From an uncultured Acidobacteriota bacterium (GTDB taxonomy: Bacteria; Acidobacteriota; UBA6911), in the NCBI GenBank assembly GCA_963809485.1, contig CAWEJX010000004.1, positions 96,001-160,000 of the forward strand: a stretch of 64,000 nt of DNA. The letters run 5' to 3'. Shown here piece after piece: positions 11,048-64,000 of the stretch. The notes under the pieces are model-generated. The model was not told the origin of the DNA. It made no database searches and saw nothing but the letters and a program-made list of their open reading frames with translations. Each line of letters begins with the position of its first letter. Within the stretch, counting starts at the first letter, position 1. Position numbers and translations under genes: made by a program.

Positions 11048-12727
11048 CTACCTCCACTTGTCGACCTCGACGCTCTGCAGATACATCAGTCCGCCGATGC
11101 TGTAGTAATTGTTGTTGGTTCCGCCGGTGACGATGATTTCCATCGCATTGGGCTGGAACCAGGGCTCCTGCCCTGCCGGCGCTTCCATCAGGTATTTCTT
11201 GAAATCATCAATCGTATTGTAACCGGCATTCTTGACAAAATTGGCGATCGGCGGGCTGAGGACCGCCGTGGCGCCGAAAAGGAACGGGGCCTGTGTGATA
11301 AAGATATCCTTGATGATCTTGGGGAAATTCATCTCTTTGCCCCAGACGTTGGCCCTCCAGTTTTTCGCCGATAGAACGCCCCATCCTTCAAACAGGCTCA
11401 CGATGTTCTGGTTCGGCTTGAAGCCCTTTCGAACTGAAAATGGCTGCCACGGGGAATCGCGCTCGTTCTCGGCAATGACGATGTTGATCAGGTTCATGGG
11501 ATTCCCCACGGTGCCCATGTAGGTCGTCCCCACTTTGCCGCAGTTGCCCAGGTTGATGGCGATCAGGCTCCACGCTCTTCCAATGGTGGTATTGGCATGG
11601 GCATACGGCCCCAGCGCGCCGATCTCATAGTTCAGCCCGATCTCGTCGCGGATCGCGCCGTTGATTACCAGGGCGCCCACAAAGCCGTTGTCGGACACCG
11701 AGATGGCTTCCTTTCCGGTGGACGCCACCGCAAGCAGCAGCGGCAGATATTCCGGTTTGCAGCCGGCCATGACTGCATTCACGGCAACGTCTTTGACCGT
11801 GAAGGTCCAGTACTCAAAATAGCCGCCGGTGTTGGTGGGCGACATCTTGCCGACAATTTCATCGGGATCGTGGCTGGTTCCCTTCAGCATGTCGGCGACC
11901 TTCTCCTCGGTCGGCAGAACCACCGGCAGGAAATCGGTCCACCGCTTTTCCAGAAACATCTTCTGAAGATTATCGGGAGTATCCGTAAATGTAGCCGGGC
12001 CTTTGTCCCGGACCAATTCGCCGGTCCTCTTTTCTTCAGCCGTCAACGGCTTGGTCAGATGCTCGACGATTTCCTGCATGACGTTCTTTTTGCTGATCGG
12101 ACTGATGCCGTTGACGACATCCCGGCGCAACTGTTCGCGGGTTTTTCCCCAAACCGGACCGCGAACCCACTCGATGCGCAGGCCGGGCATGCCTTTGAGA
12201 AGGGCGGCCTCTGTTTCCTGTTTGTAGAATTCGGAAAGGACCAGCGGAACGGCGGGAATACCCATGCTTGCTTCGAAATTGATGGAGTGGCCGACAACTG
12301 CCGGCGCACATTGGCTTCAATGGCCCATCCCGATGATTACGGCAGCGGCATTCTGCTTGATTTCGGCCCACAACTGCGGATCTTCAGCCTCAAAGCCCAT
12401 GCCGCCTTTTCTCTTGAACACAACCTTGGTCTTGGGCATGTTCTGTGTAAACCAGTCCACCATTTCGAGCAGAAGGTTGTCTCCTCCCACAAAGCCGTCG
12501 TCGACAATGTAGATTGTTTTGCCGTCGAGGGAGGCCGGACGCGGCGCCATTGATTTCAGTTTTACAGGGGGAGGATTCCCCAGCGGATTAAGCACCGTTA
12601 TCCTGGTCTCAGCGGAGGCTGCCGCCTTATTCCCCTGTGCCATAGCCTGATTGTCCAAAGCCGGGAAGCCGCAAAACAGGCCCAGGCAGAGCGCCGTAAT
12701 GACGGCCGTCGATATAAAGCCCTTCAT
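11048..12727 (-). CDS. exported UGSC-like selenoprotein (559 aa, Sec137, GMGH-U-SQC)
   Basis: ORFs 12317..12727 and 11048..12265 are in frame across a TGA at 12319-12317; signal peptide; SECIS-like hairpin; colinear with the uninterrupted paralog 25619-27379. Confidence 0.88.
12290..12305 (-). promoter_or_regulatory. bacterial SECIS-like hairpin GCCGGC-AGTT-GTCGGC
   Basis: starts 11 nt after the UGA; G in the apical loop; same geometry in three paralogs. Confidence 0.75.
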
Positions 12728-24159: not shown

Positions 24160-25215
24160 CTATTTTTCGGGCGGATTCAGAGTGTATTTGCGCGTCATTC
24201 CCAGCGTAAACAGGATATACGGCCGGTCGATGCGATTGAATTGTATAGGACAATGCTTGAGGTTCGGCGGTACCCATATCAGGCTGCTTTGGGTGATAAG
24301 ATACTTCTCGCCGTTGAGCCAGAATTCGAGCTCTCCGCCCAGGTCGCCCGTGTTTCCCTTCCCCCCGGTACCGATAAATCCGAAAACTTCACCCCACGCG
24401 TGGCTGTGCTCCGGGTGGTTGGGGCCCTTTTCGGATCCTTTCCACATATATACAAAATCTATATACGGCGCCCCCTCGATGGAATCGAGGTCCAGAAGGC
24501 GGTCTCCTTCAGTGGTGGAGCTGTTCTTCTTTCCCATTTCAGCCCACTTCTTCAAGGTCTCAGGTGAGACTTTGTCGGGGTTGACTCCGTAAGAAATATA
24601 TTTGGCAAAGTTCCTTTCCTCGGCTTTGTCGGGTTTGAATTCGGTTGCGGTCCTGGAGTACTGGGTTGCCATTCCGCCGGTAAAGAAGAGAACGGGCGAG
24701 TCTATCCGGGTGAATCGGATCGGGCAGTGCCTCACTCCCTTCGGAACATAGATGAGGCAGCACTTGTTTATCATGTATTTCTCTCCGCCGAGCCACACCT
24801 CGATTTCCGAGCCCAGGTTCCGGAAATCCTTTTGCCCTTTGACCCCTATGAATCCAATGAATTCGTCGAAGTCATGGATATGCTCCTGTTCAGCGTAACC
24901 CTTGGCGGCACCCTCCCAAAGCCAATGGAAATCAAGATACGGAGCCCCTTCGGTCCGTGTCGTGTCCAGATTCAGAATCTGAGTCGATGGAACCATCGAC
25001 TGCTGAACCTTTTGTTCCTTGCGGATTTTCTCCAGCATCTCCGGAGAAATATCCAGAGGCTTGACGTCGGTGAAAATATACTTGGCATATTTCCTCTCCG
25101 CGCTTCGGTCCTGCGCAACCGCATTGTCTGACGGCCAAAGAACCAGGGCTGCGGAAACGGAGGTCAGGAGAATAAGCAAAACGGCCAATCCGATATATCG
25201 ATATGCTCTGCGCAT
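24160..25215 (-). CDS. exported tandem cupin-like protein
   Basis: signal/anchor sequence; two repeats (EHIHDFDE...HCPI and EHSHAWGE...HCPI), each homologous to 18163-18600. Confidence 0.75.
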   Translation of the reverse strand: MRRAYRYIGLAVLLILLTSVSAALVLWPSDNAVAQDRSAERKYAKYIFTDVKPLDISPEMLEKIRKEQKVQQSMVPSTQILNLDTTRTEGAPYLDFHWLWEGAAKGYAEQEHIHDFDEFIGFIGVKGQKDFRNLGSEIEVWLGGEKYMINKCCLIYVPKGVRHCPIRFTRIDSPVLFFTGGMATQYSRTATEFKPDKAEERNFAKYISYGVNPDKVSPETLKKWAEMGKKNSSTTEGDRLLDLDSIEGAPYIDFVYMWKGSEKGPNHPEHSHAWGEVFGFIGTGGKGNTGDLGGELEFWLNGEKYLITQSSLIWVPPNLKHCPIQFNRIDRPYILFTLGMTRKYTLNPPEK

Positions 25216-25618
25216 GGGGGATCCCTCCTCAAGAAAAATTAGCCTGTTTCTGGAGCCGTCCTGTGACGCATGGACCTTTCCGAGCAAGCATAATAAAAGG
25301 ACACTAAACCGATGTCCGTGCATCAATAGGCAATCGGACAGAAACAACAATGCTCTTTGAGGCATTTTTATCACGAATGCGCATCCTGCCGCAACACGGG
25401 AGACAGATAACCGGATTTGCAGGTCTACACCCGAAGCTGCTAGCCGATTTCCATGCGTCAGGCCCAGCGGGTTCTCGAGACTCCACGGTCCGGGGAAACA
25501 TAGTCAAAAAAATCGGCAGCGTCGTGAGATAATGCGCAGATACCGCTTGCTGTCCGCATCAAGGAGGCAAGAAGTGAAAAACGCCAGGAATCCCGGCTCA
25601 AGCTTGGAGGGTAATTCA

Positions 25619-27379
25619 ATGAAAGAGAAAGTTGCGTTCACATGCCTGAATCCTCAGGGTGCAGTCGATATCGCCGCTCCTGCGGGTCTGACCGCTCCCC
25701 GCGTCAAAGACCTGGCCGGCAAGAGAGTCGGCATTTTCTGGGATGGCAAAAAGGGCGGCGACAACTTCTGCATCGCGCTGGAAGAGGCTCTGAAAAGGAA
25801 ATATCCCACAGCCCGGTTCATCCGCCTCGTATGGGGAGACGTCGAGGCGGCGGAGAAAAGCAAAAACGAAGTGGACACATTTGTCTTTGGTGTCGGCGAT
25901 GCGGGAATGGGGGGATGGGGCCAGTGCCGGAATGTAATGGACCTGGAAAAACTCGGCAAACCCGGAATTTTTGTAGTGGGAGAGAATGCCATTCACACGG
26001 CAAGAATGTCGGCGCGCGACTCGGGAATGCCCGGATTGCGGATCGTGAGCCTGCCTTCCATAGATTATTACCCCAACCGCTCGACGGCAGACGGACTGAG
26101 ACCTGTGGTAGAGGCACGCATAAGCCTCATTATCGACGCCTTAACCAAACCCCTGACGCCCGAGGAGAAGAATCCATCTTTGATGCCGCAAAGAGAGTTT
26201 CCGGCAAAAGTCAGGATTTCCGCCGAGAGCTATGAATTCGCACTGGATGAGTTCAACCGGGTATACCTCGAAAACCATTGGGGGGACGGCTTACCCCTTA
26301 TTCCTCCCACAAAAAAAGCCGTCAAGCGGATGCTTTCGGGGACCAAACGTTCCCCGGACGAGATTCTGGGCAAGATCCCCTTCCGCAACGGAATTGCCAC
26401 GATCGGGAAGGTGGCTGTGAACGCAGTGATGGCGGGCGCCAGGCCGGAGTACCTGCCCGTGATCATCGCCGCTATCGAATGCCTTGCCGAGGAGGGCTCC
26501 TTTTCTCACATGATGAGTTCGGAGGGCTCGTTCACCCTGATGATCATGGTCAGCGGGCCTATCTGCAGCGAGATCAACATGAATTCCGGCGTGGGACTGT
26601 TGGGCCATGGATGGCAGGCCAACAATACCATCGGTCGTGCCGTAAGATTGTGCATGACGAACCTGGGATATCTATGGCCCGGAGAAATCGATATGGCCCT
26701 GATCGGCCGCCCTTCCTCGCACACTTTCTATACCTTCGCCGAAAACATGGAGCAGAGCCCCTGGGAATCATTCAACGCGGGCCTGGGTTACGGGCCTGAG
26801 GACAGCTGCGTAACGCTTTCCACGGTTGGCGGCGCCGGTGGATTGGGCATGAAGATATACGGCGGAGGCGTGGTGGAACCCTGGGATGCTGCGGAGGTCC
26901 TTCAAAGCATGGCTGAGGAAGTGGCCGGCGATAGGGCGATATTTGCGGCTTACAAACTGGGAGTCGCCAATTATTTCGCTCATTTCCGCAAGCACATCAT
27001 GATCATTCATCCCGAACTGGCGATCATGCTGCAGCGTCTCGGATACAAAACCAAACGCAGTTTGCGCGACTACTTTTACGAGAGCTCAAGAGTGCCGTTT
27101 GAAGAACTCACCCTGGATGAGGTCAAGGGCTTAAGAGACAGGATGAACACAAAGCCGGGCGGAGTGTTCTTTGCGAACGATTCGATTGCCGCAAGCCAGC
27201 TTCCGCTTTTTAAGGCAGCTCTCAAACCGGGCGGCAAAGTCCCGGTAGTGAACCCCGACGACATCCACCTGATTGTCTCCGGCAGCATACCGGGATATTC
27301 GTTCGGCATGTCGTATATGCGTTCGGCGCACAAAACAAAACGCATCCAGGGGGCCAAGTTAACACGGTCCGGCCGCTGA
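25619..27379 (+). CDS. UGSC-like protein lacking Sec/Cys (GVGD-A-GMG), cytoplasmic
   Basis: colinear with the three selenoproteins (LNP.G...APR...L.GK; W.DGLP.IPPT; VAVNAVMAGA.PEY.P; ANNTIGRA); GGAGG RBS; no signal peptide. Confidence 0.85.
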   Translation: MKEKVAFTCLNPQGAVDIAAPAGLTAPRVKDLAGKRVGIFWDGKKGGDNFCIALEEALKRKYPTARFIRLVWGDVEAAEKSKNEVDTFVFGVGDAGMGGWGQCRNVMDLEKLGKPGIFVVGENAIHTARMSARDSGMPGLRIVSLPSIDYYPNRSTADGLRPVVEARISLIIDALTKPLTPEEKNPSLMPQREFPAKVRISAESYEFALDEFNRVYLENHWGDGLPLIPPTKKAVKRMLSGTKRSPDEILGKIPFRNGIATIGKVAVNAVMAGARPEYLPVIIAAIECLAEEGSFSHMMSSEGSFTLMIMVSGPICSEINMNSGVGLLGHGWQANNTIGRAVRLCMTNLGYLWPGEIDMALIGRPSSHTFYTFAENMEQSPWESFNAGLGYGPEDSCVTLSTVGGAGGLGMKIYGGGVVEPWDAAEVLQSMAEEVAGDRAIFAAYKLGVANYFAHFRKHIMIIHPELAIMLQRLGYKTKRSLRDYFYESSRVPFEELTLDEVKGLRDRMNTKPGGVFFANDSIAASQLPLFKAALKPGGKVPVVNPDDIHLIVSGSIPGYSFGMSYMRSAHKTKRIQGAKLTRSGR

Positions 27380-54654: not shown

Positions 54655-55107
54655 TCATCGTCTGCCGATGCCTTCAGCCCCCGTTATCTCGGACGACGGA
54701 GCGAAATACATTCTGCTCACAACAGCGAAGAGAACTCCGGTGGACCAGCCGCACATCAGTATTCCCGTCAGCGCCTCCGCCGCCGCGAAGATACGCCACT
54801 GATCGGGCAGGACGAGGTCGCCATAGCCAACGGTGGTGTATGTGACGGCGCTGAAGTAGAAAGATGTCCTGAAATCGGGGAAAATCTTCCACCAGGTCAA
54901 AACAGATGCCCAGCTGGCGATTTCCGACAGATGAGCCGATAGCATGCCTGCGGCAACCAGGATCAGGATTGAGACGGCATGCCAGAAGTGAAGGACCTTT
55001 GGCCTGGGAATCCGGCTCAGGCGGCGGAGCATCACCGTCATCGCGAGTGCATGAACTACAACACACACGGCAAGCAGAACAGCGGGCATCACCAGACGTA
55101 TAAGCAT
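54655..55107 (-). CDS. potassium channel family protein (pore-only)
   Basis: FYFSAVTYTTVGYGD selectivity filter. Confidence 0.88.
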   Translation of the reverse strand: MLIRLVMPAVLLAVCVVVHALAMTVMLRRLSRIPRPKVLHFWHAVSILILVAAGMLSAHLSEIASWASVLTWWKIFPDFRTSFYFSAVTYTTVGYGDLVLPDQWRIFAAAEALTGILMCGWSTGVLFAVVSRMYFAPSSEITGAEGIGRR

Positions 55108-55393
55108 CGCTCAGCGTCCTTGCGGTTTCCGGATCAACGAATTGAAAACCGGGACCGAGGTTTGAATTCGTGCCTGAAAAATGACGGATGAAGGTGATCA
55201 TAGTCCGTTGCTTGTCTTGCGTCCATATATTTGTCCGCTTCTCCCGGCCGGGCTCAAAAACCCCTTGCGCGAAGCCCCGGCCTGGGGCATAAATTATGGG
55301 CCCTGAACAAAGCCTCGAAGCTGAATGTTCGCCTGGAGCGTTCCGGGACATCAAGAGGGTTTAAATTCGCGTTCAGGTCAAGGAGTGAAAAAT

Positions 55394-55699
55394 ATGAAAG
55401 GCATTTGCATTCTGACTGCGGTTGTGCTTTTTGCCGCAGCCCCGATATTGTTGTGGGCCGCAGAGGATGGGGCGGCTCTTTATGAAAGCAGGTGTTCCAT
55501 GTGCCACGGCGCCCAGGGGGAAGGCAATCCTGATGGAGGGCTGCCCGCACTCAAGGGAACCTCGTTGACTGCAGAGAAAATCATCGCCCTGCTCATGAAG
55601 GGCGAAAAAGATAAGACAATCCACGCGGATCCGATCAGCGACCTGAAAGAAGAGCAAGCTAAAGCTATCACGGATCACGTGACAAAAATGAAAAAGTAG
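55394..55699 (+). CDS. small periplasmic monoheme cytochrome c
   Basis: AGGAG RBS; signal peptide; DGAALYESRCSMCHG. Confidence 0.85.
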   Translation: MKGICILTAVVLFAAAPILLWAAEDGAALYESRCSMCHGAQGEGNPDGGLPALKGTSLTAEKIIALLMKGEKDKTIHADPISDLKEEQAKAITDHVTKMKK

Positions 55700-55715
55700 C
55701 AGGCGAGAAACCACG

Positions 55716-55742
55716 CAGGGGTGCCCTGCCGGGCACCCTGTA
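55716..55742 (+). terminator. hairpin / possible terminator
   Basis: GGGTGCCC-TGCC-GGGCACCC; weak T-tract. Confidence 0.45.
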
Positions 55743-55988
55743 TGCCTTTGGCTGCATCGGATGATGCAGCGCCTCTTGTGAACCTCCCTTTCGGTAAGGT
55801 CTATTTTATATGGTCGCGTTAATATATTCACGCAATCAAAGGGCATGGCCTGCCCCGCCGCGTTCCACACAATGAACTGCATACATCCTCGGCTCTTGAA
55901 TCCGCCTGCAATTCCCATTTCTCTATCCAATCCACTTTCGTTACAATAAACACTACATCTGACAATCCATACAACAGCCGAGGAATAT

Positions 55989-56859
55989 ATGCTCGCTCAA
56001 ATCGTCCTAACTCCCGCAGAATCAAAAAAGCTCATCGCAAAGGCTGTGGCCAGGTTAGAGGCCGTGCAGCAGGCAGTAAAGAAAGGGATCGTCGCACTCC
56101 ATCCCAGCAGCAGCACCTACTTCATCGTGGAAGAAATCACCGGATCAAAACCGAAGACTAATTACTGGGTATGCGGCGTGGTCACGCCGAGGGGAATGTG
56201 CGTGGAAATGGCAATGGTGCTCGGCAGTGGGCTGACTCCCCGCGAAGACAAGGCCGATCCCGGCGATCTTCAGGGGACATGGGTGATAGAAAAGGGCCAA
56301 TTGGGAGGCGAAGAGAAGCTATCCAGCCTGCTCTACCGAATGACAGCCTCCGACGTCTACGTCAAAGGCGTCAATGCGCTGGATCCGGAAGGGAATGTCG
56401 GCATTCTCTTCGGTCTTGAGGGATCGATGGGATATATCCAGGCCGCGAGAAGGAAAAGAAACTTTACCATCATCTATCCGGCCGGACTGGAAAAGCTCAT
56501 TCCTATCCCGGTGAAGGAAGCGGCGAAAGAGGCAAAGTTCACCCGATATGAGTCGGGTATGGGAATGCCTGTTGGGCTTTTTCCTTGTCCAGCAGGTGTC
56601 ACGGTCAACGAAGTGACGGGCAATCCAGATACTGAGCGGCGCTTCGGCAATACCCGTCGCGTCGGGCGGCCTGGGAGGCGCGGAAGGGGCGATCACGCTT
56701 GTCCTGAAAGGGAAGCCTGATGAGGTAAAGAAGGCGCTCGATTTCGTTGAACAGTCGAAAGGAGCCAGGCTTCCGGATCTCCGTCTCTGCAACTGCAACG
56801 ATTGTCCGGTGCCAAATTGCAGGTTCCCGATGGCGGGTAAACGGTGGGCTTCGCTGTAA
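55989..56859 (+). CDS. conserved hypothetical protein with Cys-rich C-terminus (+1 frameshift at 56618-56620)
   Basis: LTPAESKKLIAKAV...YVKGVNALD...PAGLEKLIP continues as AIQILSG...ASGGLGGAEG...CNCNDCPVPNC. Confidence 0.75.
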
Positions 56860-57098
56860 CATTCCGCTCCACAATTTACCGGCCCTTCCCGTCCGCAGTT
56901 TCCTCCTGATCAAAAACTGAAGAAAAGCGATATGCCGGAAGTCCCGGCCAGGCCCCAGACCTTCCGCTTTACTGATTTCCAGATGCTCTGGCTTTGTTCG
57001 CCAGAGTCGTCTATCGCGCTTCTCGCGCCGGGAGGTGAAGCTCCATGGGTTTATGGAGCTTCACCTCTCAAAACAGCTCTCTAATTCCGGGGCGCAGC

Positions 57099-60000
57099 CT
57101 AAAACTGGAACCGGGCGACTATGATCCCCGCTCGAGGTGCAACGGCCACGGTAGTCGTATTGATGTATCCGAAGCCGGAAATCGTCTGGCCGGTGGCCGG
57201 GTTTCTGGTTTGCGTGGCTTGGGCGTTCGTCGATGTGGGACTATTCATCTCGGTGCGGTTGAAAATGTTTGAGAAATCCGCCCGTATATTGATCGAGATC
57301 CCCTCCTTGATCGGGAAATTGCGCGCGAGACTCATGCTTTCACCGGGCCGGCGCTGCTGCCGGTAATCGTTGTAATACGCGGCTCCGGTGCCGAATTGCC
57401 CGGCAGGCGGATCGACCCAGGCGTTCTTATTCAGAACAAATTCCTGGTTCGGGTCGATGCAATGACAGTTGAGATCCTTGGTGTAGAGGTCCTCCCCCGG
57501 TACCCGGTTGGCATAGGTGTTCTGGAAGAGCACCGAGCTGAGCTGATTTTGCGCGACCGGAGCCAGAATCGGCATGCCGCTTGCGTACTGCAAGGTTGCG
57601 CCGATCGTCCAATCCCGGAGTATCCAGGACGCAATCTTGTTGGCATTCCATGTCGGCACGGTGTAATTCGCCGCAATCACGAAAACAAGGGGCCGGGAGA
57701 GCATGGAAAGGTACTTGTTCACGCGCCGGTCGAAAACATTGTTTATCGCTGCGCCGCTTACTCCCATAGCATTCCCCTGCTGCTCCGCACCCATGGTCAG
57801 CTCTTTCTGCCAGGTAAAAGCAGCGGTGAAATCAAGCCCATAGGAATAGCGTTTGGTAACCTTTGCCTGCAAGGAGTCATACCAGGTTCTGCCAAGGGGC
57901 GCCCACATATATCGGATCGCGGGCGTACCGGTGGTCGTGCCTGCAAACTGCGGAAACGGGCGCAACGACTGGGCTACGGTAGACGACATCGGAAAGCCCT
58001 CATAGGGCGGTATGTTGAATCCGCGTTGCGCCGCCAGCGACGAATTCAGCGGAGAGGTCAGCAGCTTCCGGTCATCCGCGTTGTTGACGTTGAGCCCAAA
58101 AGAGGCAATACGCTCGGCTGACAACGCATTGACATTGATCAGGTCGTTGGCTTCCCACCAGGCGCCGCGGTTGCCGACATAGGAGATCTCCACGACCAGG
58201 TTCCTTAAGATCTCGTGCTGAATGCCAATGCTCCATTGGAACTGCCTCGGCGGCCGGCCGGCGTTGCCATCGATTGCGACCGGGGGCGCGCTGAGCGTGC
58301 CTGCAAGAGGATACAAACCGGCATCCAAGACAGGCCATGGCCTCGGAGCAGGCATGCCGTTGCGCAAGAGGCCCGCCGGATTGCCGTATGCGGGCGAGTA
58401 ATACGGGTTGCTGGAGCCGACCTTCCAGGATGCCTGATTTTCGTTGGCTGTTTGGCCGTAAGAGACGCCCAATCCCATACGCAGGACGGTTTTGGGCGTA
58501 ATCTGATATGCGGCTCCCAACCGCGGACCGAATGCATAGGGGTATACCTCCGCGAAGTCACAGTTGCACTGACCCGGTCCGGAGCCTTCATAAATCACGG
58601 CCCCCAACAGGCCGCCCGCGGATGGATTCGGGGTTGTGGGCGAGAAACTCGCGATCCGGCCGTGCGGATCCTTGAAGTACTCCTGGTAATCCCATCTAAG
58701 TCCGTAGTCGAGCGTAAATCTACGGGTAACCTTCCAGGTATCCTGGGCGTATGCCGACCATGCGGATTTACCCAGCCGGGGGTCGCTGGGAACCCCGCTG
58801 TTGCCGTCAGCAATAAGCCCCAGGAGAAAACTCGCGTAGGGGAATCCAATGGTGCCACCCTGCAAAGGCTGCCCCAGAATCGAGGGAAGACCGGTCTGCT
58901 CCACGCCGAAGTTGTAATAACCGTAGGAGGGGGCATAGAGTGTGGTGGGATATTTCTCCTGGCGCAATTCCGCGCCGAACTTCAAGGTGTGGTTATCCTT
59001 CACCCATGTAAGGCTGGCGCTTCCGGAAGGTTTGAACATAACCGATTTGGTTTGCATATAGGGGCCCATGTTGCCGGTCGCCATGCTGACCGCTCGCGCC
59101 GACATGCCGCCGCGAGCCGCCGAGAGTCCAGAAATGAATGGGAAGACGGTGTACAGAGATCCCGGAAGACCGAGTTCTTTGAGCTGGTCAAAATTGGTAT
59201 CGTATGCGGGATCCAGGAACTGCAGATTCTGGACACCGGCAGCCAAATGAAGCACCATGGTCGGCGTGACGGTATAATCAAAGGCCATCTGCGCTATATA
59301 AGACTCCTGGTCCGTATTCCTTTCGGTGGAGACCGGAGAAGGAATGCCGTCTCCCCCCGGAGGCCCGGGCGCGTGCTGGTTCAGGATATCTGTCGATGAC
59401 CAGAAGAACGAAAGCTTGGTGCGGTTGCTCAGGTTGTGGTTGATTTTGAAGGCCGGGATGGTTCGAATGTTGGGGCTGTCCCAGGGATTCAGATAGTTAA
59501 GTGTCACAGCCGCGCTCGTGGGTTCCGGAATGAGATTTTGGATCTTAACCGCGACCGGATCGAATCGGTCCTGCGGAATTGTGTTATTGGTAAACGGATC
59601 TCGAACGCGCAGTCCGTTAACGAGGCGTTCGGTCTGCGGATCGTATATCGTGCCTTCCATAATTGGACGGCCAAGGGGATCGCAATTGGGATTCGCCGTT
59701 GGACAAAGATTCTTCCCTGTCAGAGCTTGGCGGAAATCGCCGCTGCGATAAGCGAGAGTGGGCATCGTATATGTGGTATTAAACTTGGTCACCTCGCGGT
59801 ACTCCTCGAAGCTGAAAAAGAAGAACGTCTTATCGTGGCCGTCGTAAACCTTTGGGATGTAGACCGGCCCGCTGAAGGTGAAACCATAGTTGTTCCTGCG
59901 TACGCGGCTCTTCCTGTTTATAAAGGGCGTACTTGCGTTTAGCGCTTCATTGGACCAGTAGTCGTATGCGCTTCCGTGGTAGGAGTTGGTGCCGGATTTC

Positions 60001-60716
60001 ATGGTGATATTGAAATAGCCGCCGCCGGCCTGTCCGAACTCGGCGGCGTAGTTGCTGGTCTGAATCGCGTATTCCTCAATTGCGGCCATGCTTTGCTGGC
60101 TCATCCCCGTGCTCTGCTGCAGCATTCCGTTTGTGGCCTCCATTCCGTCGACCCGGATGCTCATCGAGGCGGAAGGGGCGCCATTGACGCGAAACCAGGC
60201 TCTGTTCTGGTAGAGCGTGCCCGGAAGCAGCGTCATCACCGCATAGGGATCTCGAATGATATTGGAAAATCCTAAAATGGGCAGGTTATCCACGCGCGTG
60301 CCGGTGACATTATGGCTGAGTTCGCCGCTTTCTGTTTTCAGGAGCGGCGCATCGGCGCTGACCGAAACAGTTTCGGTGATGGTGCCGACCTCCATCGCGA
60401 TATCAATGCGCAATGTCTGCGCAACCATGACCGTGATTCCGGTTCGTAAATACTGCTTGAATCCGGCCTGGGTTGCCGTGATCTGATAGACTCCGACCGG
60501 CAGTTGGGCCAGGGTGTAATTGCCAGTCGCCGAACTGACAGTCTGATAAACGGCCCCCGTTTGTGTGTTTTTGGCTTCAATCTGGGCTTTCGGGATCATG
60601 GCGCCGGCCGGGTCCGAAATGGTCCCGGTTATGGTGCCCCGGTCGCTTTGAGCCGAAGCCGGGGCTGCTGCGAAGATTAGACAAGCAACTGCAATCAAAC
60701 ATGCAACTGAACGCAT
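57099..60716 (-). CDS. TonB-dependent receptor (Oar-like, carboxypeptidase-regulatory-like N-domain)
   Basis: signal peptide; GTITGTISDPAGA; TSNYAAEFG..GGG; KSGTNSYHGS; QDTWKV..TLDYGLRWD; C-terminal RFQF. Confidence 0.93.
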   Translation of the reverse strand: MRSVACLIAVACLIFAAAPASAQSDRGTITGTISDPAGAMIPKAQIEAKNTQTGAVYQTVSSATGNYTLAQLPVGVYQITATQAGFKQYLRTGITVMVAQTLRIDIAMEVGTITETVSVSADAPLLKTESGELSHNVTGTRVDNLPILGFSNIIRDPYAVMTLLPGTLYQNRAWFRVNGAPSASMSIRVDGMEATNGMLQQSTGMSQQSMAAIEEYAIQTSNYAAEFGQAGGGYFNITMKSGTNSYHGSAYDYWSNEALNASTPFINRKSRVRRNNYGFTFSGPVYIPKVYDGHDKTFFFFSFEEYREVTKFNTTYTMPTLAYRSGDFRQALTGKNLCPTANPNCDPLGRPIMEGTIYDPQTERLVNGLRVRDPFTNNTIPQDRFDPVAVKIQNLIPEPTSAAVTLNYLNPWDSPNIRTIPAFKINHNLSNRTKLSFFWSSTDILNQHAPGPPGGDGIPSPVSTERNTDQESYIAQMAFDYTVTPTMVLHLAAGVQNLQFLDPAYDTNFDQLKELGLPGSLYTVFPFISGLSAARGGMSARAVSMATGNMGPYMQTKSVMFKPSGSASLTWVKDNHTLKFGAELRQEKYPTTLYAPSYGYYNFGVEQTGLPSILGQPLQGGTIGFPYASFLLGLIADGNSGVPSDPRLGKSAWSAYAQDTWKVTRRFTLDYGLRWDYQEYFKDPHGRIASFSPTTPNPSAGGLLGAVIYEGSGPGQCNCDFAEVYPYAFGPRLGAAYQITPKTVLRMGLGVSYGQTANENQASWKVGSSNPYYSPAYGNPAGLLRNGMPAPRPWPVLDAGLYPLAGTLSAPPVAIDGNAGRPPRQFQWSIGIQHEILRNLVVEISYVGNRGAWWEANDLINVNALSAERIASFGLNVNNADDRKLLTSPLNSSLAAQRGFNIPPYEGFPMSSTVAQSLRPFPQFAGTTTGTPAIRYMWAPLGRTWYDSLQAKVTKRYSYGLDFTAAFTWQKELTMGAEQQGNAMGVSGAAINNVFDRRVNKYLSMLSRPLVFVIAANYTVPTWNANKIASWILRDWTIGATLQYASGMPILAPVAQNQLSSVLFQNTYANRVPGEDLYTKDLNCHCIDPNQEFVLNKNAWVDPPAGQFGTGAAYYNDYRQQRRPGESMSLARNFPIKEGISINIRADFSNIFNRTEMNSPTSTNAQATQTRNPATGQTISGFGYINTTTVAVAPRAGIIVARFQF

Positions 60717-61038
60717 CGGGTGTATCCTCCTATCGCCTGCAATTTTATTGGCGCACAGAAACACGCACCGCTTATGGCTCCCTTGCCAACTTTTCGACTA
60801 TTGCATCCCCTCTCAACCTATTGCCGCATCGCATAGCTCGCTCAGATTGGCGGCGGTGACAGCGCGCCCTTCTCGGGCAACAACGTCAAGGAACGGCAGG
60901 GGCGTTATCGGGCTCCACTGAAAATCTGTTTCTGTTTGACAATATTATCTGCGGCGGTGTCCATTTGCGTGAGTTGTACGCGCCGCTACTAATGGTGATT
61001 TTAAGCTAGTCGATTTGTCAACTCGTTGTCAAGAAAAT

Positions 61039-61058
61039 ATGTCACAAATATGTGACAT
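61039..61058. promoter_or_regulatory. perfect palindrome ATGTCACA-AATA-TGTGACAT
   Basis: 8-bp inverted repeat in the divergent promoter region. Confidence 0.55.
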
Positions 61059-61373
61059 GGAAGTGACCCGGGCGGCAAAACTATGCTATAGTTGTCGCGT
61101 CGTGGGGAATCTCCAGACCAGGCGCTTTTATCTAACATATTGCCTAATACCAGACGCGGCCGGGAATCCGTGGAGGGAGATCTCCGTTCTATGCAGGCGG
61201 CCTGTGAATCATGTTTTGGACAAAGCGGCGGCAGGCTGCCGCATCCCAAACCATCTATAATTTTTTTATAATTTTTTTCGGAGGTTGTGATTCCCGATGT
61301 GGTTGAAGAAAGCCTGACGCACTAAAAACACAGCTATGGACCAACAGGATCAAAAATCAGGAAAGGGCGGCTT

Positions 61374-63161
61374 ATGAAAAACAGAGCAAGTTGTTTGCTG
61401 ATAGGGATCTTTTGGGTGACGGCCCTTTTGTCGGAATCGCTTTGGGCCGCGGATATTACAAAGATCACGGTGCTGAATCCGCGAGGCGTTCAGCCCCCGA
61501 TACGCTTGATACCCATGGCTCCCCGCCTCGATACATTGGATGGGAAGACGATCTACGTCGTGGATACCAAGTATCCGTTGACAAGGCCATTCGTACAGGA
61601 AGTCTTCAATGTGCTCAAGGAGAGGTATCCAAAAACAAACTGGATATTCCGGGACAAAATCGGCAGCTATTTTGATGATGATCCCAAGCTTTGGGCCGAG
61701 ATCAAGGAGAAAGGCCACGGCATGGTTATGGCCGTCGGGCATTGAAGCACCTGCTCGCCGGCGGTCGCCGGCCATTGTATCTCGGTTGAGAAGTTGGGTG
61801 TGCCAAGTGCCCCCATCATTACCGAAAGGTTTCAGGACCTTGTCCGGACCATTTCATGGAAGAAGGGGGTGCCGAACATGCGCTTTACATTTGTTCCGCA
61901 TCCCGTTGCAGGCAAAGCCGCCGACATTTGCCGTCGATACTTGCTGGGCAACGATCCGCTGACAGGAAAGCCGGTTGTGGACGAACTTGTGGCGGCCTTG
62001 ACGCGACCGCTGTCCGCGGACGACATGAAGAAGGGATTTCTGACAAGAGATCCGCGGCCGAGAATGCTGAAACCTGATACCGCAGCAAACCTGGAAAAGC
62101 TATTCAATGACAGTCTGTGGACGGACGGGCTTCCTATTGTGCTTCCGACAGAAGACAAAGTCGCCGAGATGCTCAGGGCCACCAGTCACAAGGCGGATGA
62201 GACCGTAGGCACGATGCGTCCGTCGCCTCCGCACGAAGCGTGGGAATACACGGTCGAAATGGTTGCGGCCAACGCGGTGATGGCGGGAGCAAAGCCCGAA
62301 TATTTTCCGGTTATCCTGGCCCTGGCCTCAACGGGAGTGACCTCGCTTTTCACATCTACGACGTCTTTTGCCCGGATGATGGTGCTGAACGGGCCGATCA
62401 TCCAGCAGATCAATATGAACACAGGCATTGGAGCCATGGGACCTTTCAATCAGGCTAATGCCACGATTGGAAGAGCCTGGACGCTAATATCCAAGAACCT
62501 GGGCGGAGGAGGGGTTCCCGGCGAAACCTATTTGGGCAGCCAGGGCAGCAATCTCAATTACAACAATCTGTGTTATCCGGAAACGGAAGATGGCTTGCCT
62601 GCCGGGTGGAACCCTCTCCACGTGCAAAAGGGTTTCAAAAAGAACGACAGCGTCGTGAGCACCTTCACGGGCTGGAGCATCAGCAACTATGGCGGCTACA
62701 TAAGCCTGCCGCACAACGAAATCATGAAGTGGCAGCTGCAAAACTTTTTCACGAGCGGGACCGGAAGCAATGGGTCGGCTACTCTCCTGTTGGATCCCGT
62801 GGTCGCCAGAGACCTGAAGGATAGGTTTGACACAAAAGAAAAACTGGTCGAATGGCTCGCTCAAAATGCCACGACGCCGGCCTGGCATTACTGGGCTCGG
62901 GGAGAAGATCAGCTGAAACAGGCAAAATCGGGGGTCGAACCTTTTGCGTCCTATCTGAAATTGGGGGAGATTGCGTCATTGCCCGTTTCGCCCTTCCTCC
63001 GGAGGCCTATGGCTGCGAAGACTCCATCTCAAGGCAAGCCGCCCGACGGCCCTCCGCGCTCCCCGATCGAGATCATTGTGGTGGGAGGAGGCACGAATGC
63101 CTTCTGGGTTGCGGGAGACTTCAGCTATGTCTCCAGTGCTTCCGTCGACAAGTGGAGGTAA
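61374..63161 (+). CDS. exported UGSC-like selenoprotein (595 aa, Sec124, AVGH-U-STC)
   Basis: ORFs 61374..61745 and 61794..63161 are in frame across TGA 61743-61745; signal peptide ending SLWA; SECIS-like hairpin. Confidence 0.9.
61757..61772 (+). promoter_or_regulatory. bacterial SECIS-like hairpin GCCGGC-GGTC-GCCGGC
   Basis: 11 nt after the UGA; perfect 6-bp stem; loop starts with G. Confidence 0.78.
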
Positions 63162-63281
63162 CGCGCCGCAGCGAAATTCGCCCACGGAATATCCTGTGGT
63201 TTTGAGTTTCCCTATGGAGTCGCAGTGCTGACGGTAATGCACGCGGTTCATGTCCATTTTTCGTTCAAAGGAGATCAGATC

Positions 63282-64000
63282 ATGAAAAAGAGGATCGGTT
63301 GGCCGGCATTCGCAGTTTGTCTCCTTGCCTGCCTTGTTATTTCGTGCACCCAAAATCCGGAACAGCGGACGCTTACGGTCTTGAATCCTGTCGGCTCGGC
63401 TTCTCCGACTCCGCTGATCCCGATGGCGCCTCGCCTGGATACGCTGGAAGGAAAGACCATCTATATCGTGGATGTGATGTATCCGCTCACTCATCAGCTA
63501 TTCGAAGAAATGCAGAAAGTGCTGTCCGAAAAATACCCCAAGACGAACTGGGTGGTCAAAAGCAAGGCGGGCACCTACTTTGATAATGACCCTAAACTGT
63601 GGGAAGAAGTCAAGGCGCAAGCCCAGGGAATGATCATAGGCGTCGGCCATTGAAGCAGCTGCACGCCGGCGGTCGCCAGCCATGCTATTACGGTCGAGAA
63701 ACTTGGAGTGCCCACAGCCCCCATCGTCACCAGTCGATTTCAGGATGTCTCAGAAGCCACTGCCGCCAGCAAGGGCATGCCCCGGGCACGATTCACTTAT
63801 ATCCATCACCCGGTTTCGAACAAGCCTGCGGCGGAGTGCCGAAAATACATCGAGGGCAACGATCCTTTGACCGGCAAACCGGTGGTTGAGGAGATTGTAG
63901 CCGCTCTAACCAAACCATTATCGGATGAGGATAAAAAGACCGGGTTCGTGGAAAAACCTCGGGAAAGGCTGCTAAAACCCGATACAGCGCAGAATCTGGA
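63282..64000 (+). CDS. lipoprotein UGSC-like selenoprotein (Sec124, GVGH-U-SSC), runs off the window
   Basis: lipobox-like LVISC; TGA 63651-63653; the frame stays open (SSCTPAVASHAITVEKLGVP...KPDTAQNL) and aligns with the upstream paralog. Confidence 0.88.
63665..63680 (+). promoter_or_regulatory. bacterial SECIS-like hairpin GCCGGC-GGTC-GCCAGC
   Basis: 11 nt after the UGA; same loop as the 61757 hairpin; one C-A mismatch. Confidence 0.7.

Follow-up and report, generated by a model that had tools for sequence, protein, structure and literature searches.

Selenoproteins of the UGSC family (PF24696, NF041046) have been known since 2005-2008 from Sargasso Sea and Global Ocean Sampling (GOS) metagenomes, with function unknown, according to the available part of PMC2398784, which in 2008 also mentions a UGSC/“Unknown_1” fusion; UGSC is listed with function unknown in the available part of a 2026 review as well (PMC13188914). 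Here we study genes A and B, two tandem members of a UGSC-fusion family, and the TonB-dependent receptor gene divergent from them, in a stretch of 64,000 nucleotides (nt; hereafter the window) from an uncultured Acidobacteriota bacterium (GenBank assembly GCA_963809485.1, contig CAWEJX010000004.1, positions 96,001 to 160,000 of the forward strand). The source genome, G000 (its contigs are designated C4, C12, and so on, and the window lies on C4), is a metagenome-assembled genome (MAG) of 6.04 Mb in 21 contigs, 95.7% complete with 7.3% estimated contamination. We consider it fairly probable that genes A and B represent a lineage-specific expansion of exported two-domain selenoproteins that are made by selenocysteine (Sec) readthrough, belong to an operator-defined regulon, and may act as reductases in the cell envelope. 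The locus had first been described in a reading of the window from its letters alone (the sequence-only reading), and that observation is confirmed here, with corrections.

Several described systems resemble this locus in part. The UGSC family shares the N-terminal match and the placement of U-x-x-C, but compared with its stand-alone members the proteins here are ~600 amino acids (aa) long with an added ~400-aa domain, are exported, occur in ~40 copies per genome, carry the motifs HUSxC, GUxxC, DUGxC, and WUGAA instead of UGSC, and fall below the NF041046 cut-off. U-x-x-C is also common to the selenoprotein B subunits of glycine, sarcosine, betaine, and D-proline reductases (GrdB, GrdF, GrdH, and PrdB), to which profile matches are faint, none coming near a cut-off. 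No counterpart of their pyruvoyl subunit was detected, and reductases of this type are cytoplasmic whereas the proteins here are exported. In GrdB/PrdB chemistry, Sec is the nucleophile and a neighbouring Cys resolves the adduct, as proposed here.

On the receptor side, SusC/SusD loci likewise place a TonB-dependent receptor beside exported proteins and lipoproteins under a local regulator, but the receptor here is Oar-type, its partners are redox proteins rather than glycoside hydrolases, and the linkage does not extend to the family as a whole. Oar of Myxococcus xanthus has the same architecture of CarboxypepD_reg plus barrel, the likeness being one of architecture, and is a TonB-dependent transporter needed for PopC secretion (PMC6434023, available part); no PopC-like protease lies beside the receptor here. 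A selenoprotein TonB receptor (FCYXU) in the table of PMC13188914, as far as that table is available, likewise ties selenium to TonB receptors, but at this locus the selenium is in the neighbouring genes: the receptor has no in-frame TGA and matches nothing in NCBIfam beyond a weak S-layer hit, so it does not fit the FCYXU selenoprotein receptor model. What would be new is an architectural and genomic variant of the known UGSC family, with 38 intact Sec genes from one family.

Genes A and B as probable selenoprotein genes

The features of the two genes are as follows.

61374..63161, plus strand: gene A, exported UGSC-fusion selenoprotein (predicted) of 595 aa with stop TAA, a single frame with TGA read through
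61374..61448, plus strand: signal-peptide-like N-terminus of gene A (MKNRASCLLIGIFWVTALLSESLWA), from a heuristic reading of the sequence
61470..61934, plus strand: UGSC domain of gene A, aa 33-187 (PF24696, E 5e-26, 92 bits against a cut-off of 25)
61743..61745, plus strand: probable Sec codon of gene A, TGA codon 124, in GH-U-STC, with the same residues in the orthologue at locus L016
61757..61772, plus strand: selenocysteine insertion sequence (SECIS)-like hairpin of gene A, GCCGGC-GGTC-GCCGGC, beginning 14 nt after the T of TGA
62076..63158, plus strand: conserved C-terminal domain of gene A, ~aa 235-595, of no named family, with residues conserved across paralogs
63282..64000 and on to G000:C4:161042, plus strand: gene B, lipobox-bearing UGSC-fusion selenoprotein (predicted) of ~587 aa, stop TAG
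63651..63653, plus strand: probable Sec codon of gene B, TGA codon 124, in GH-U-SSC, at the aligned column

Genes A and B are 59% identical, and each contains exactly one in-frame TGA in its read-through translation; under translation table 11, each is split into a short N-terminal open reading frame (ORF) and a C-terminal ORF of ~450 aa. The sequence-only reading had taken them for tandem UxxC selenoprotein genes, one with a cleavable signal peptide and the other with a lipobox, and had proposed that the window be extended rightwards. The two TGA codons, a signal-peptide-like N-terminus in A and a lipobox-like LVISC in B (both by heuristic), and the remainder of gene B beyond the window edge all agree with that description.

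It is very probable, judging from sequence evidence of several kinds, that the TGA of this family is a selenocysteine codon. A missing Sec machinery, which the sequence-only reading had named as a ground for rejecting its proposal, was looked for, and tRNA-Sec, selB (391 bits), selA (565), and selD (346) were all detected, the three genes above curated cut-offs. TGA also ends more ordinary ORFs than either other stop codon (343 of 861 with at least 300 aa on three contigs), so the code as a whole is standard, with no genome-wide recoding. Among the 56 paralog segments of the genome that span the Sec column, 42 have TGA at exactly the aligned column, none has Cys there, and 14 have other residues. 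A perfect stem of at least 6 bp starting 10-24 nt after the TGA was present at 24 of the 42 family sites, compared with 91 of 420 random in-frame sites of the same genes and 417 of 2000 random TGAs, and mean minimum free energy was -11.4 kcal/mol at family sites vs. -7.3 in controls. Within the HUSxC clade, the hairpin varies by G-C to G-U changes only, with no double changes; the stems of other clades differ and cannot share one alignment register with those of HUSxC. Between gene A and its L016 orthologue, nucleotide differences number 19, 15, and 59 at codon positions 1, 2, and 3, in one frame across the TGA, on both sides of which purifying selection acts.

Relatives elsewhere carry Cys at the Sec column, including those of Neorhizobium galegae (HCSTC; 42% identical over residues 31-595), Variovorax, and Halalkalicoccus. 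The column is reached in 53 of 106 representatives, which have 17 Cys, 29 other residues, and 7 gaps there, although some of the “C” letters may stand for U in the source records. Another 37 start 1-50 residues past the column, as expected for gene calling after a UGA. In databases, the best 120 relatives consist of the C-terminal part only, 364-483 aa long, which bears out the earlier suggestion that standard annotation misses the family.

That the TGA codons are instead true stops, and each “gene” two genes or a pseudogene, is highly improbable. Gene callers do split the genes at TGA, and the two domains are separate genes in haloarchaea; but the 42 TGAs share a column that lies inside the UGSC domain and not between the domains, the Cys forms are full length, and the hairpin, the complete Sec machinery, and the continuous codon-position bias all speak against termination. 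The haloarchaeal split, moreover, lies past the UGSC domain, which carries CGSC there.

Other Sec-related features were seen in passing. The selD gene (G000:C8:80982-81905, L015) carries one in-frame TGA and is a further selenoprotein gene of the genome, and a YqeB-type maturation gene (G000:C7:172980-173744; TIGR03309, 221.3 bits against a cut-off of 220) hints at selenium-dependent molybdenum hydroxylases. On the Acidovorax sp. T1 plasmid p2-T1 (NZ_CP021650.1), a conjugative IncP plasmid, a mostly unannotated homologue (L030:8001-9101) has TGA at the Sec column (D-U-GSC) with a hairpin after it and IS1071 and IS91 transposases nearby; a cultured bacterium would here possess a Sec form.

A UGSC domain fused to a domain of no named family

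The N-terminal domain belongs to the known UGSC family (PF24696), with scores of 92.2 bits for gene A and 111.7 for gene B against the cut-off of 25. Scores against the NCBIfam equivalog NF041046, a stand-alone model of ~147 positions, were 62.4 and 79 bits, below its cut-off of 125. The sequence-only reading had spoken of an expanded, uncharacterised family; the expansion stands and the function is uncharacterised, but the family is not entirely new, given its N-terminal domain. In the literature on UGSC and on Acidobacteriota selenoproteins we found no account of the expansion, although the fusion may have been described before, in the supplement of PMC2398784 or in Haft and Tolstoy 2025, and the text of BSepDB names neither UGSC nor Acidobacteria.

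For the C-terminal ~400 aa, 34 members were scanned against Pfam and NCBIfam, all with no match, and Protein Data Bank (PDB) profile searches with two alignments returned a best E of 0.16 with implausible alignments. Conservation in this domain is nevertheless strong: D251, N362, and E403 are invariant in all 52 aligned paralogs, T259 is kept in 50 and R367 in 49, a few Sec copies having Ser and Lys in their place. Cys127 is kept in 36 of 39 Sec paralogs and in none of 13 non-Sec paralogs; since Sec124 and Cys127 are lost together, they would form a redox pair. The C-terminal polar residues are conserved even after loss of the pair, which points to substrate binding or conversion. In haloarchaea the two domains are encoded by adjacent separate genes, an adjacency that suggests a functional tie between them. 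On plasmid 2 of Halalkalicoccus jeotgali (L029:8980-10584), for example, a “UGSC family (seleno)protein” with motif CGSC adjoins a “hypothetical protein” that is the C-terminal domain.

The fusion family comprises 4149 representative clusters at E ≤0.001 and 327 at 1e-30, with at least 7419 fusion-form matches among the best 8000 candidates scored, and its ESM Atlas clusters come from Pseudomonadota, Acidobacteriota, and Thermodesulfobacteriota. In larger fusion forms, Pfam found UGSC with unrelated exported-protein domains and nothing else. The sole hint at chemistry comes from GrdB/PrdB profiles, with TIGR04483 (E 0.0047) and TIGR01917 (E 0.026) each matching 2 of 34 members and others 1 of 34.

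Expansion in the genome and the genus

Besides genes A and B, two paralogs lie in the window.

11050..12619, minus strand: third exported paralog with TGA, motif HUSQC (PF24696; signal peptide by heuristic)
25637..26866, plus strand: paralog without Sec, Cys, or signal peptide, motif DAGMG (PF24696)

These are the third exported paralog and the redox-dead cytoplasmic paralog that the sequence-only reading had reported. A six-frame translation search of the genome with gene A recovered 66 related segments in 32 loci, among them 38 intact Sec genes and 4 fragments. PF24696 matched over its cut-off 55 times in this genome and not at all in 14 control genomes. Signal-peptide-like N-termini were recognised in 43 of 56 copies (export calls being heuristic, from N-terminal sequence), and the copies without one are mostly non-Sec. 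In a quick maximum-likelihood tree of 52 copies, clades correspond to HUSxC, GUxxC, DUGxC, and WUGAA, and non-Sec copies are nested within Sec clades, so that Sec has been lost several times and never to Cys in this genome. Three tandem W-U-G-A-A paralogs (G000:C4:341958-347779), with Sec and no resolving Cys, form a long-branched clade; they were not listed by the PF24696 search.

The family is found throughout the genus. When relatives were re-annotated with UGA as Sec and paralogs counted, a check that had been proposed with the original description, all 24 same-genus genomes searched carried the family, with at least 8-33 matches each at E 1e-20 or better (at most 32 candidates were scored per genome), and all but 5 of the matches listed have exactly one TGA. 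The closed genome of one relative, G012, has 36 matches, 31 of them with one TGA. In other Acidobacteriota, 16 of 200 genomes have 1-2 matches, mostly without TGA. With selD added, the genome has at least 39 Sec genes. The largest selenoprotein gene sets reported comprise 57 and 63 genes of many families, and selenoprotein-rich bacteria are placed among anaerobic Thermodesulfobacteriota, Synergistota, and Clostridia (both from the available part of PMC13188914). The count here is high yet below those maxima; what is unusual is the single family, its export, and the phylum.

Neighbours of the paralogs are varied and include a pyrroloquinoline quinone (PQQ) propeller; the recurrent ones are xanthine-dehydrogenase-type subunits (5 and 4 loci), URO-D-like proteins (4), twin-arginine translocation (TAT) flavoproteins (4), and aldehyde ferredoxin oxidoreductase (3). 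FAD oxidoreductases, a UroD-like enzyme, and cupins had been reported from the window itself; one cupin is confirmed there (24160-25371), and genes of the URO-D-like and FAD oxidoreductase kinds were confirmed next to paralogs outside the window. In cultured bacteria, Cys forms lie among carboxylate transporters and oxidoreductases, the Variovorax gene directly following a 305-aa NAD(P)/FAD oxidoreductase and a TctC-type binding protein.

The stretch is represented in contigs from soil and wetland metagenomes, with 88-99% identity. Around the Sec codon and its hairpin (61737-61844), contig depth was several-fold higher in three soil/wetland metagenomes, the likeliest cause being many paralogs with a common nucleotide stretch.

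An Oar-type receptor and a putative operator in the divergent region

The other half of the locus comprises the receptor gene, the region between it and gene A, and signals within and after that region.

57099..60764, minus strand: Oar-type TonB-dependent receptor, 1221 aa (PF25183 E 1e-152, PF13620 E 1e-20, PF00593 E 2e-11)
60765..61373, no strand: divergent intergenic region, 609 bp, 75% identical to the orthologous L016 region
61039..61058, no strand: putative operator with 8-nt inverted arms (ATGTCACA / TGTGACAT) and a 4-nt spacer; core TGTCACA-N4-TGTGACA at 61040-61057
61063..61092, plus strand: promoter-like -35/-10 (GTGACC, 18 nt, TATAGT), directly 3' of the operator, from a consensus scan
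63182..63199, plus strand: terminator-like hairpin with a T-rich tail between genes A and B, from a consensus scan

The receptor, read on the minus strand as an Oar-like protein in the sequence-only reading, indeed has the Oar-type architecture, a CarboxypepD_reg N-terminal extension and a TonB-dependent barrel: Pfam places PF13620 CarboxypepD_reg at aa 44-125, PF25183 OMP_b-brl_4 at 254-1204, and PF00593 TonB_dep_Rec_b-barrel at 584-796. No Plug domain was among its Pfam matches at E 0.01. Its likelier start is an ATG 16 codons downstream of the GTG. Genes A and B run divergently from it on the plus strand, across an intergenic region measured at 609 bp where ~650 bp had been given. Identity to the L016 locus is 94.6% for the gene A protein vs. 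75% for the intergenic region. The promoter-like sites, 1 seen against a mean of 1.7 in shuffles, are weak evidence taken by themselves, and no Rfam family was matched over 56800-64000.

The element at 61039-61058 had been called a perfect palindrome. Its 8-nt arms are perfect, but they are separated by the 4-nt spacer, so it is not a 20-nt palindrome. In the 6.04-Mb genome, the core occurs in 6 perfect copies, compared with ~0.02-0.05 expected by chance (arithmetic), and 4 one-mismatch copies; all 10 are in promoter-like gaps, and 8 are on contig C12. It is kept in the L016 region, and relative genomes have 10, 7, 7, 6, and 1 perfect sites, whereas a control pattern had 0. Two sites lie upstream of a second Oar gene (C12:188469), which is followed by a same-strand UGSC gene cluster. 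The common regulatory region proposed earlier for the receptor and gene A is supported: it contains this operator, which is seen again at further Oar and UGSC loci and in related genomes. Next to the remaining sites are genes for four Peptidase_S15-type hydrolases, TAT-signal FAD_binding_2 flavoproteins, an esterase, a sugar-type transporter (identified from N-terminal sequence alone), and a GntR-family protein.

The GntR gene (G000:C12:180386-181501) has its start 85 bp from a site with one mismatch; in G012, its orthologue (71%) has a perfect site ~200 bp away, just upstream. From this adjacency we infer that an autoregulated GntR-type regulator may control the receptor, gene A, and exported catabolic enzymes. 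A CRP/FNR-type regulator was also considered, and was dropped in favour of the adjacent GntR gene: none of nine HTH_Crp_2 matches lies beside an operator site.

Several neighbours have no assigned family. A 188-aa lipoprotein-like gene (L019:1056-1619; G000:C4:161056-161622) begins 14 bp after gene B and has four paralogs on C12, each trailing a UGSC gene, one of them with a weak DUF4352 match (E 2e-4). A 243-aa ORF at 55989-56720 (plus strand), adjoining the 3' end of the receptor gene, and two minus-strand ORFs within 54674-55927 match no Pfam family. At the edge of the C12 region rich in operators and paralogs, the ORF G000:C12:41058-42266 has an N-terminus that looks phage-integrase-like by eye.

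Linkage to Oar receptors holds for some loci

The functional proposal that came with the sequence-only reading was a utilisation locus: a substrate would enter through the Oar receptor and be processed in the periplasm by the products of genes A and B. We regard this as possible but doubtful, the idea being partly supported by the shared operator and by recurrent local pairing. Linkage was scored as a paralog within 3 kb of an Oar-like gene, with relatives of the window receptor alone counted as Oar-like. By this measure, 9 of 36 paralogs were linked in G012 (4.8% expected; binomial 4e-5, loci not independent), but there was no enrichment in G000 (3 of 58, 5.7% expected), G015 (1 of 25), G018 (0 of 27), or G003 (0 of 21). 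Conserved linkage to TonB receptors, proposed earlier as a check, thus applies to the orthologue group of this receptor and not to the whole family, one of five genomes being enriched; the Oar link is real for some loci and is no family-wide rule.

Where it does occur, the pairing takes more than one form. At L016 the layout is the same divergent one; at L018 and on C12 of G000 the receptor is followed by a UGSC gene on one strand; L017 combines one receptor with four paralogs. In G012, a 75% orthologue of the window receptor, with an operator site ~290 bp upstream, lies 2.4 kb from a UGSC gene. GntR paralogs stand between UGSC and Oar genes in G012 and G015, and the small lipoprotein gene recurs behind gene B and four C12 paralogs. 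All of these favour a utilisation locus, as does the divergent promoter region, with its operator, that receptor and gene A have in common. Against it, “Oar within 5 kb” is unclustered on the paralog tree (4 changes vs. 4.9 in shuffles), and Pfam revealed no SusD-like gene among ten flanking products and genes A and B, the 188-aa lipoprotein having no family. The linkage counts, furthermore, cover relatives of one receptor, with other TonB receptor types outside them, and come from related genomes, which are kin and not independent.

The same counts bear on the rather unlikely reading that receptor and UGSC genes are neighbours without any functional tie. Genes A and B would then be two of many dispersed paralogs that serve redox or binding purposes in the envelope generally, and the receptor would have only a regulator in common with them. 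This reading would agree with the 32 separate loci and their varied neighbours (xanthine-dehydrogenase-type, URO-D-like, aldehyde ferredoxin oxidoreductase, PQQ propeller) and with the lack of Oar enrichment in four of five genomes; but pairing of this one receptor lineage with UGSC genes is seen in several genomes, in two orientations and with the operator kept.

The transport direction could also be the reverse, with the receptor carrying periplasmic UGSC proteins over the outer membrane as Myxococcus Oar does for PopC. The N-terminal CarboxypepD_reg extension is shared with that protein, and the neighbours are exported and, by heuristic, have no known surface-targeting signals. This is nonetheless very unlikely: nothing in the analysis bears on transport direction, most UGSC paralogs have no Oar gene near them, and the Oar architecture says little by itself, since it accounts for 28% of TonB-dependent transporters in the available part of PMC6434023.

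Proposed mechanism

Our favoured reading of genes A and B as expanded, exported two-domain selenoproteins would work as follows. SelB and tRNA-Sec would decode UGA as selenocysteine at the hairpin 14 nt downstream, and the product would be exported, A through its signal peptide and B as a lipoprotein. The UGSC domain would carry the Sec-x-x-Cys redox pair, Sec124/Cys127, and the C-terminal ~400-aa domain, with its invariant polar residues, most likely binds or turns over the substrate. The locus would belong to the regulon of TGTCACA-N4-TGTGACA, whose probable regulator is the GntR-family protein with a site in its own promoter, and which would also take in Oar-type TonB receptors, exported S15-type hydrolases, esterases, and TAT flavoproteins. 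As periplasmic or surface reductases, the proteins would attack a substrate bond through Sec, the nearby Cys resolving the adduct, and a general envelope reductant, such as a single unlinked DsbD, might re-reduce the pair. Many paralogs would then stand for many substrates.

A number of observations weigh against this reading. The hairpin of gene B (63665-63680), otherwise the same as that of gene A, has one C.A mismatch, and 10 of the 42 TGA sites have no perfect 5-bp stem. The one soil metatranscriptome yielded 6 short contigs, in which neither expression level nor read-through is visible. Both redox residues are absent, and the C-terminal residues kept, in 13 of 52 aligned paralogs and 29 of 53 representatives, so the C-terminal domain would work without the pair in many members. 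Only 1-2 of 34 members show the faint resemblance to GrdB/PrdB (E 0.005-0.06), the regulator was assigned by adjacency, and the genome is a MAG with its 7.3% estimated contamination. DsbD as a linked reductant was set aside: the single DsbD-type gene in the genome is 30 kb from the nearest paralog and shows no linkage.

Significance

One family accounts for 38 intact Sec genes in a single Acidobacteriota genome, with similar numbers genus-wide; nearly all appear to be exported, and few escape being split by standard gene callers. If the proteins are enzymes, a large family (the 4149 representative clusters) with an unnamed domain would gain a testable function, and selenium supply would matter for the range of compounds open to degradation by these abundant soil bacteria. 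For experiments, the operator and candidate regulator offer a direct way in. More tentatively, and unlikely to hold as a whole, the family might be a genus-wide secreted selenoenzyme toolbox of ~40 members per genome, in which a Sec-Cys head is joined to a substrate-specific domain of undescribed fold for the reductive cleavage of bonds in organic matter within the envelope, in concert with TonB receptors, hydrolases, and flavoproteins of one GntR-type regulon. Were that so, selenium would be a limiting cofactor for carbon turnover in soil and wetland habitats.

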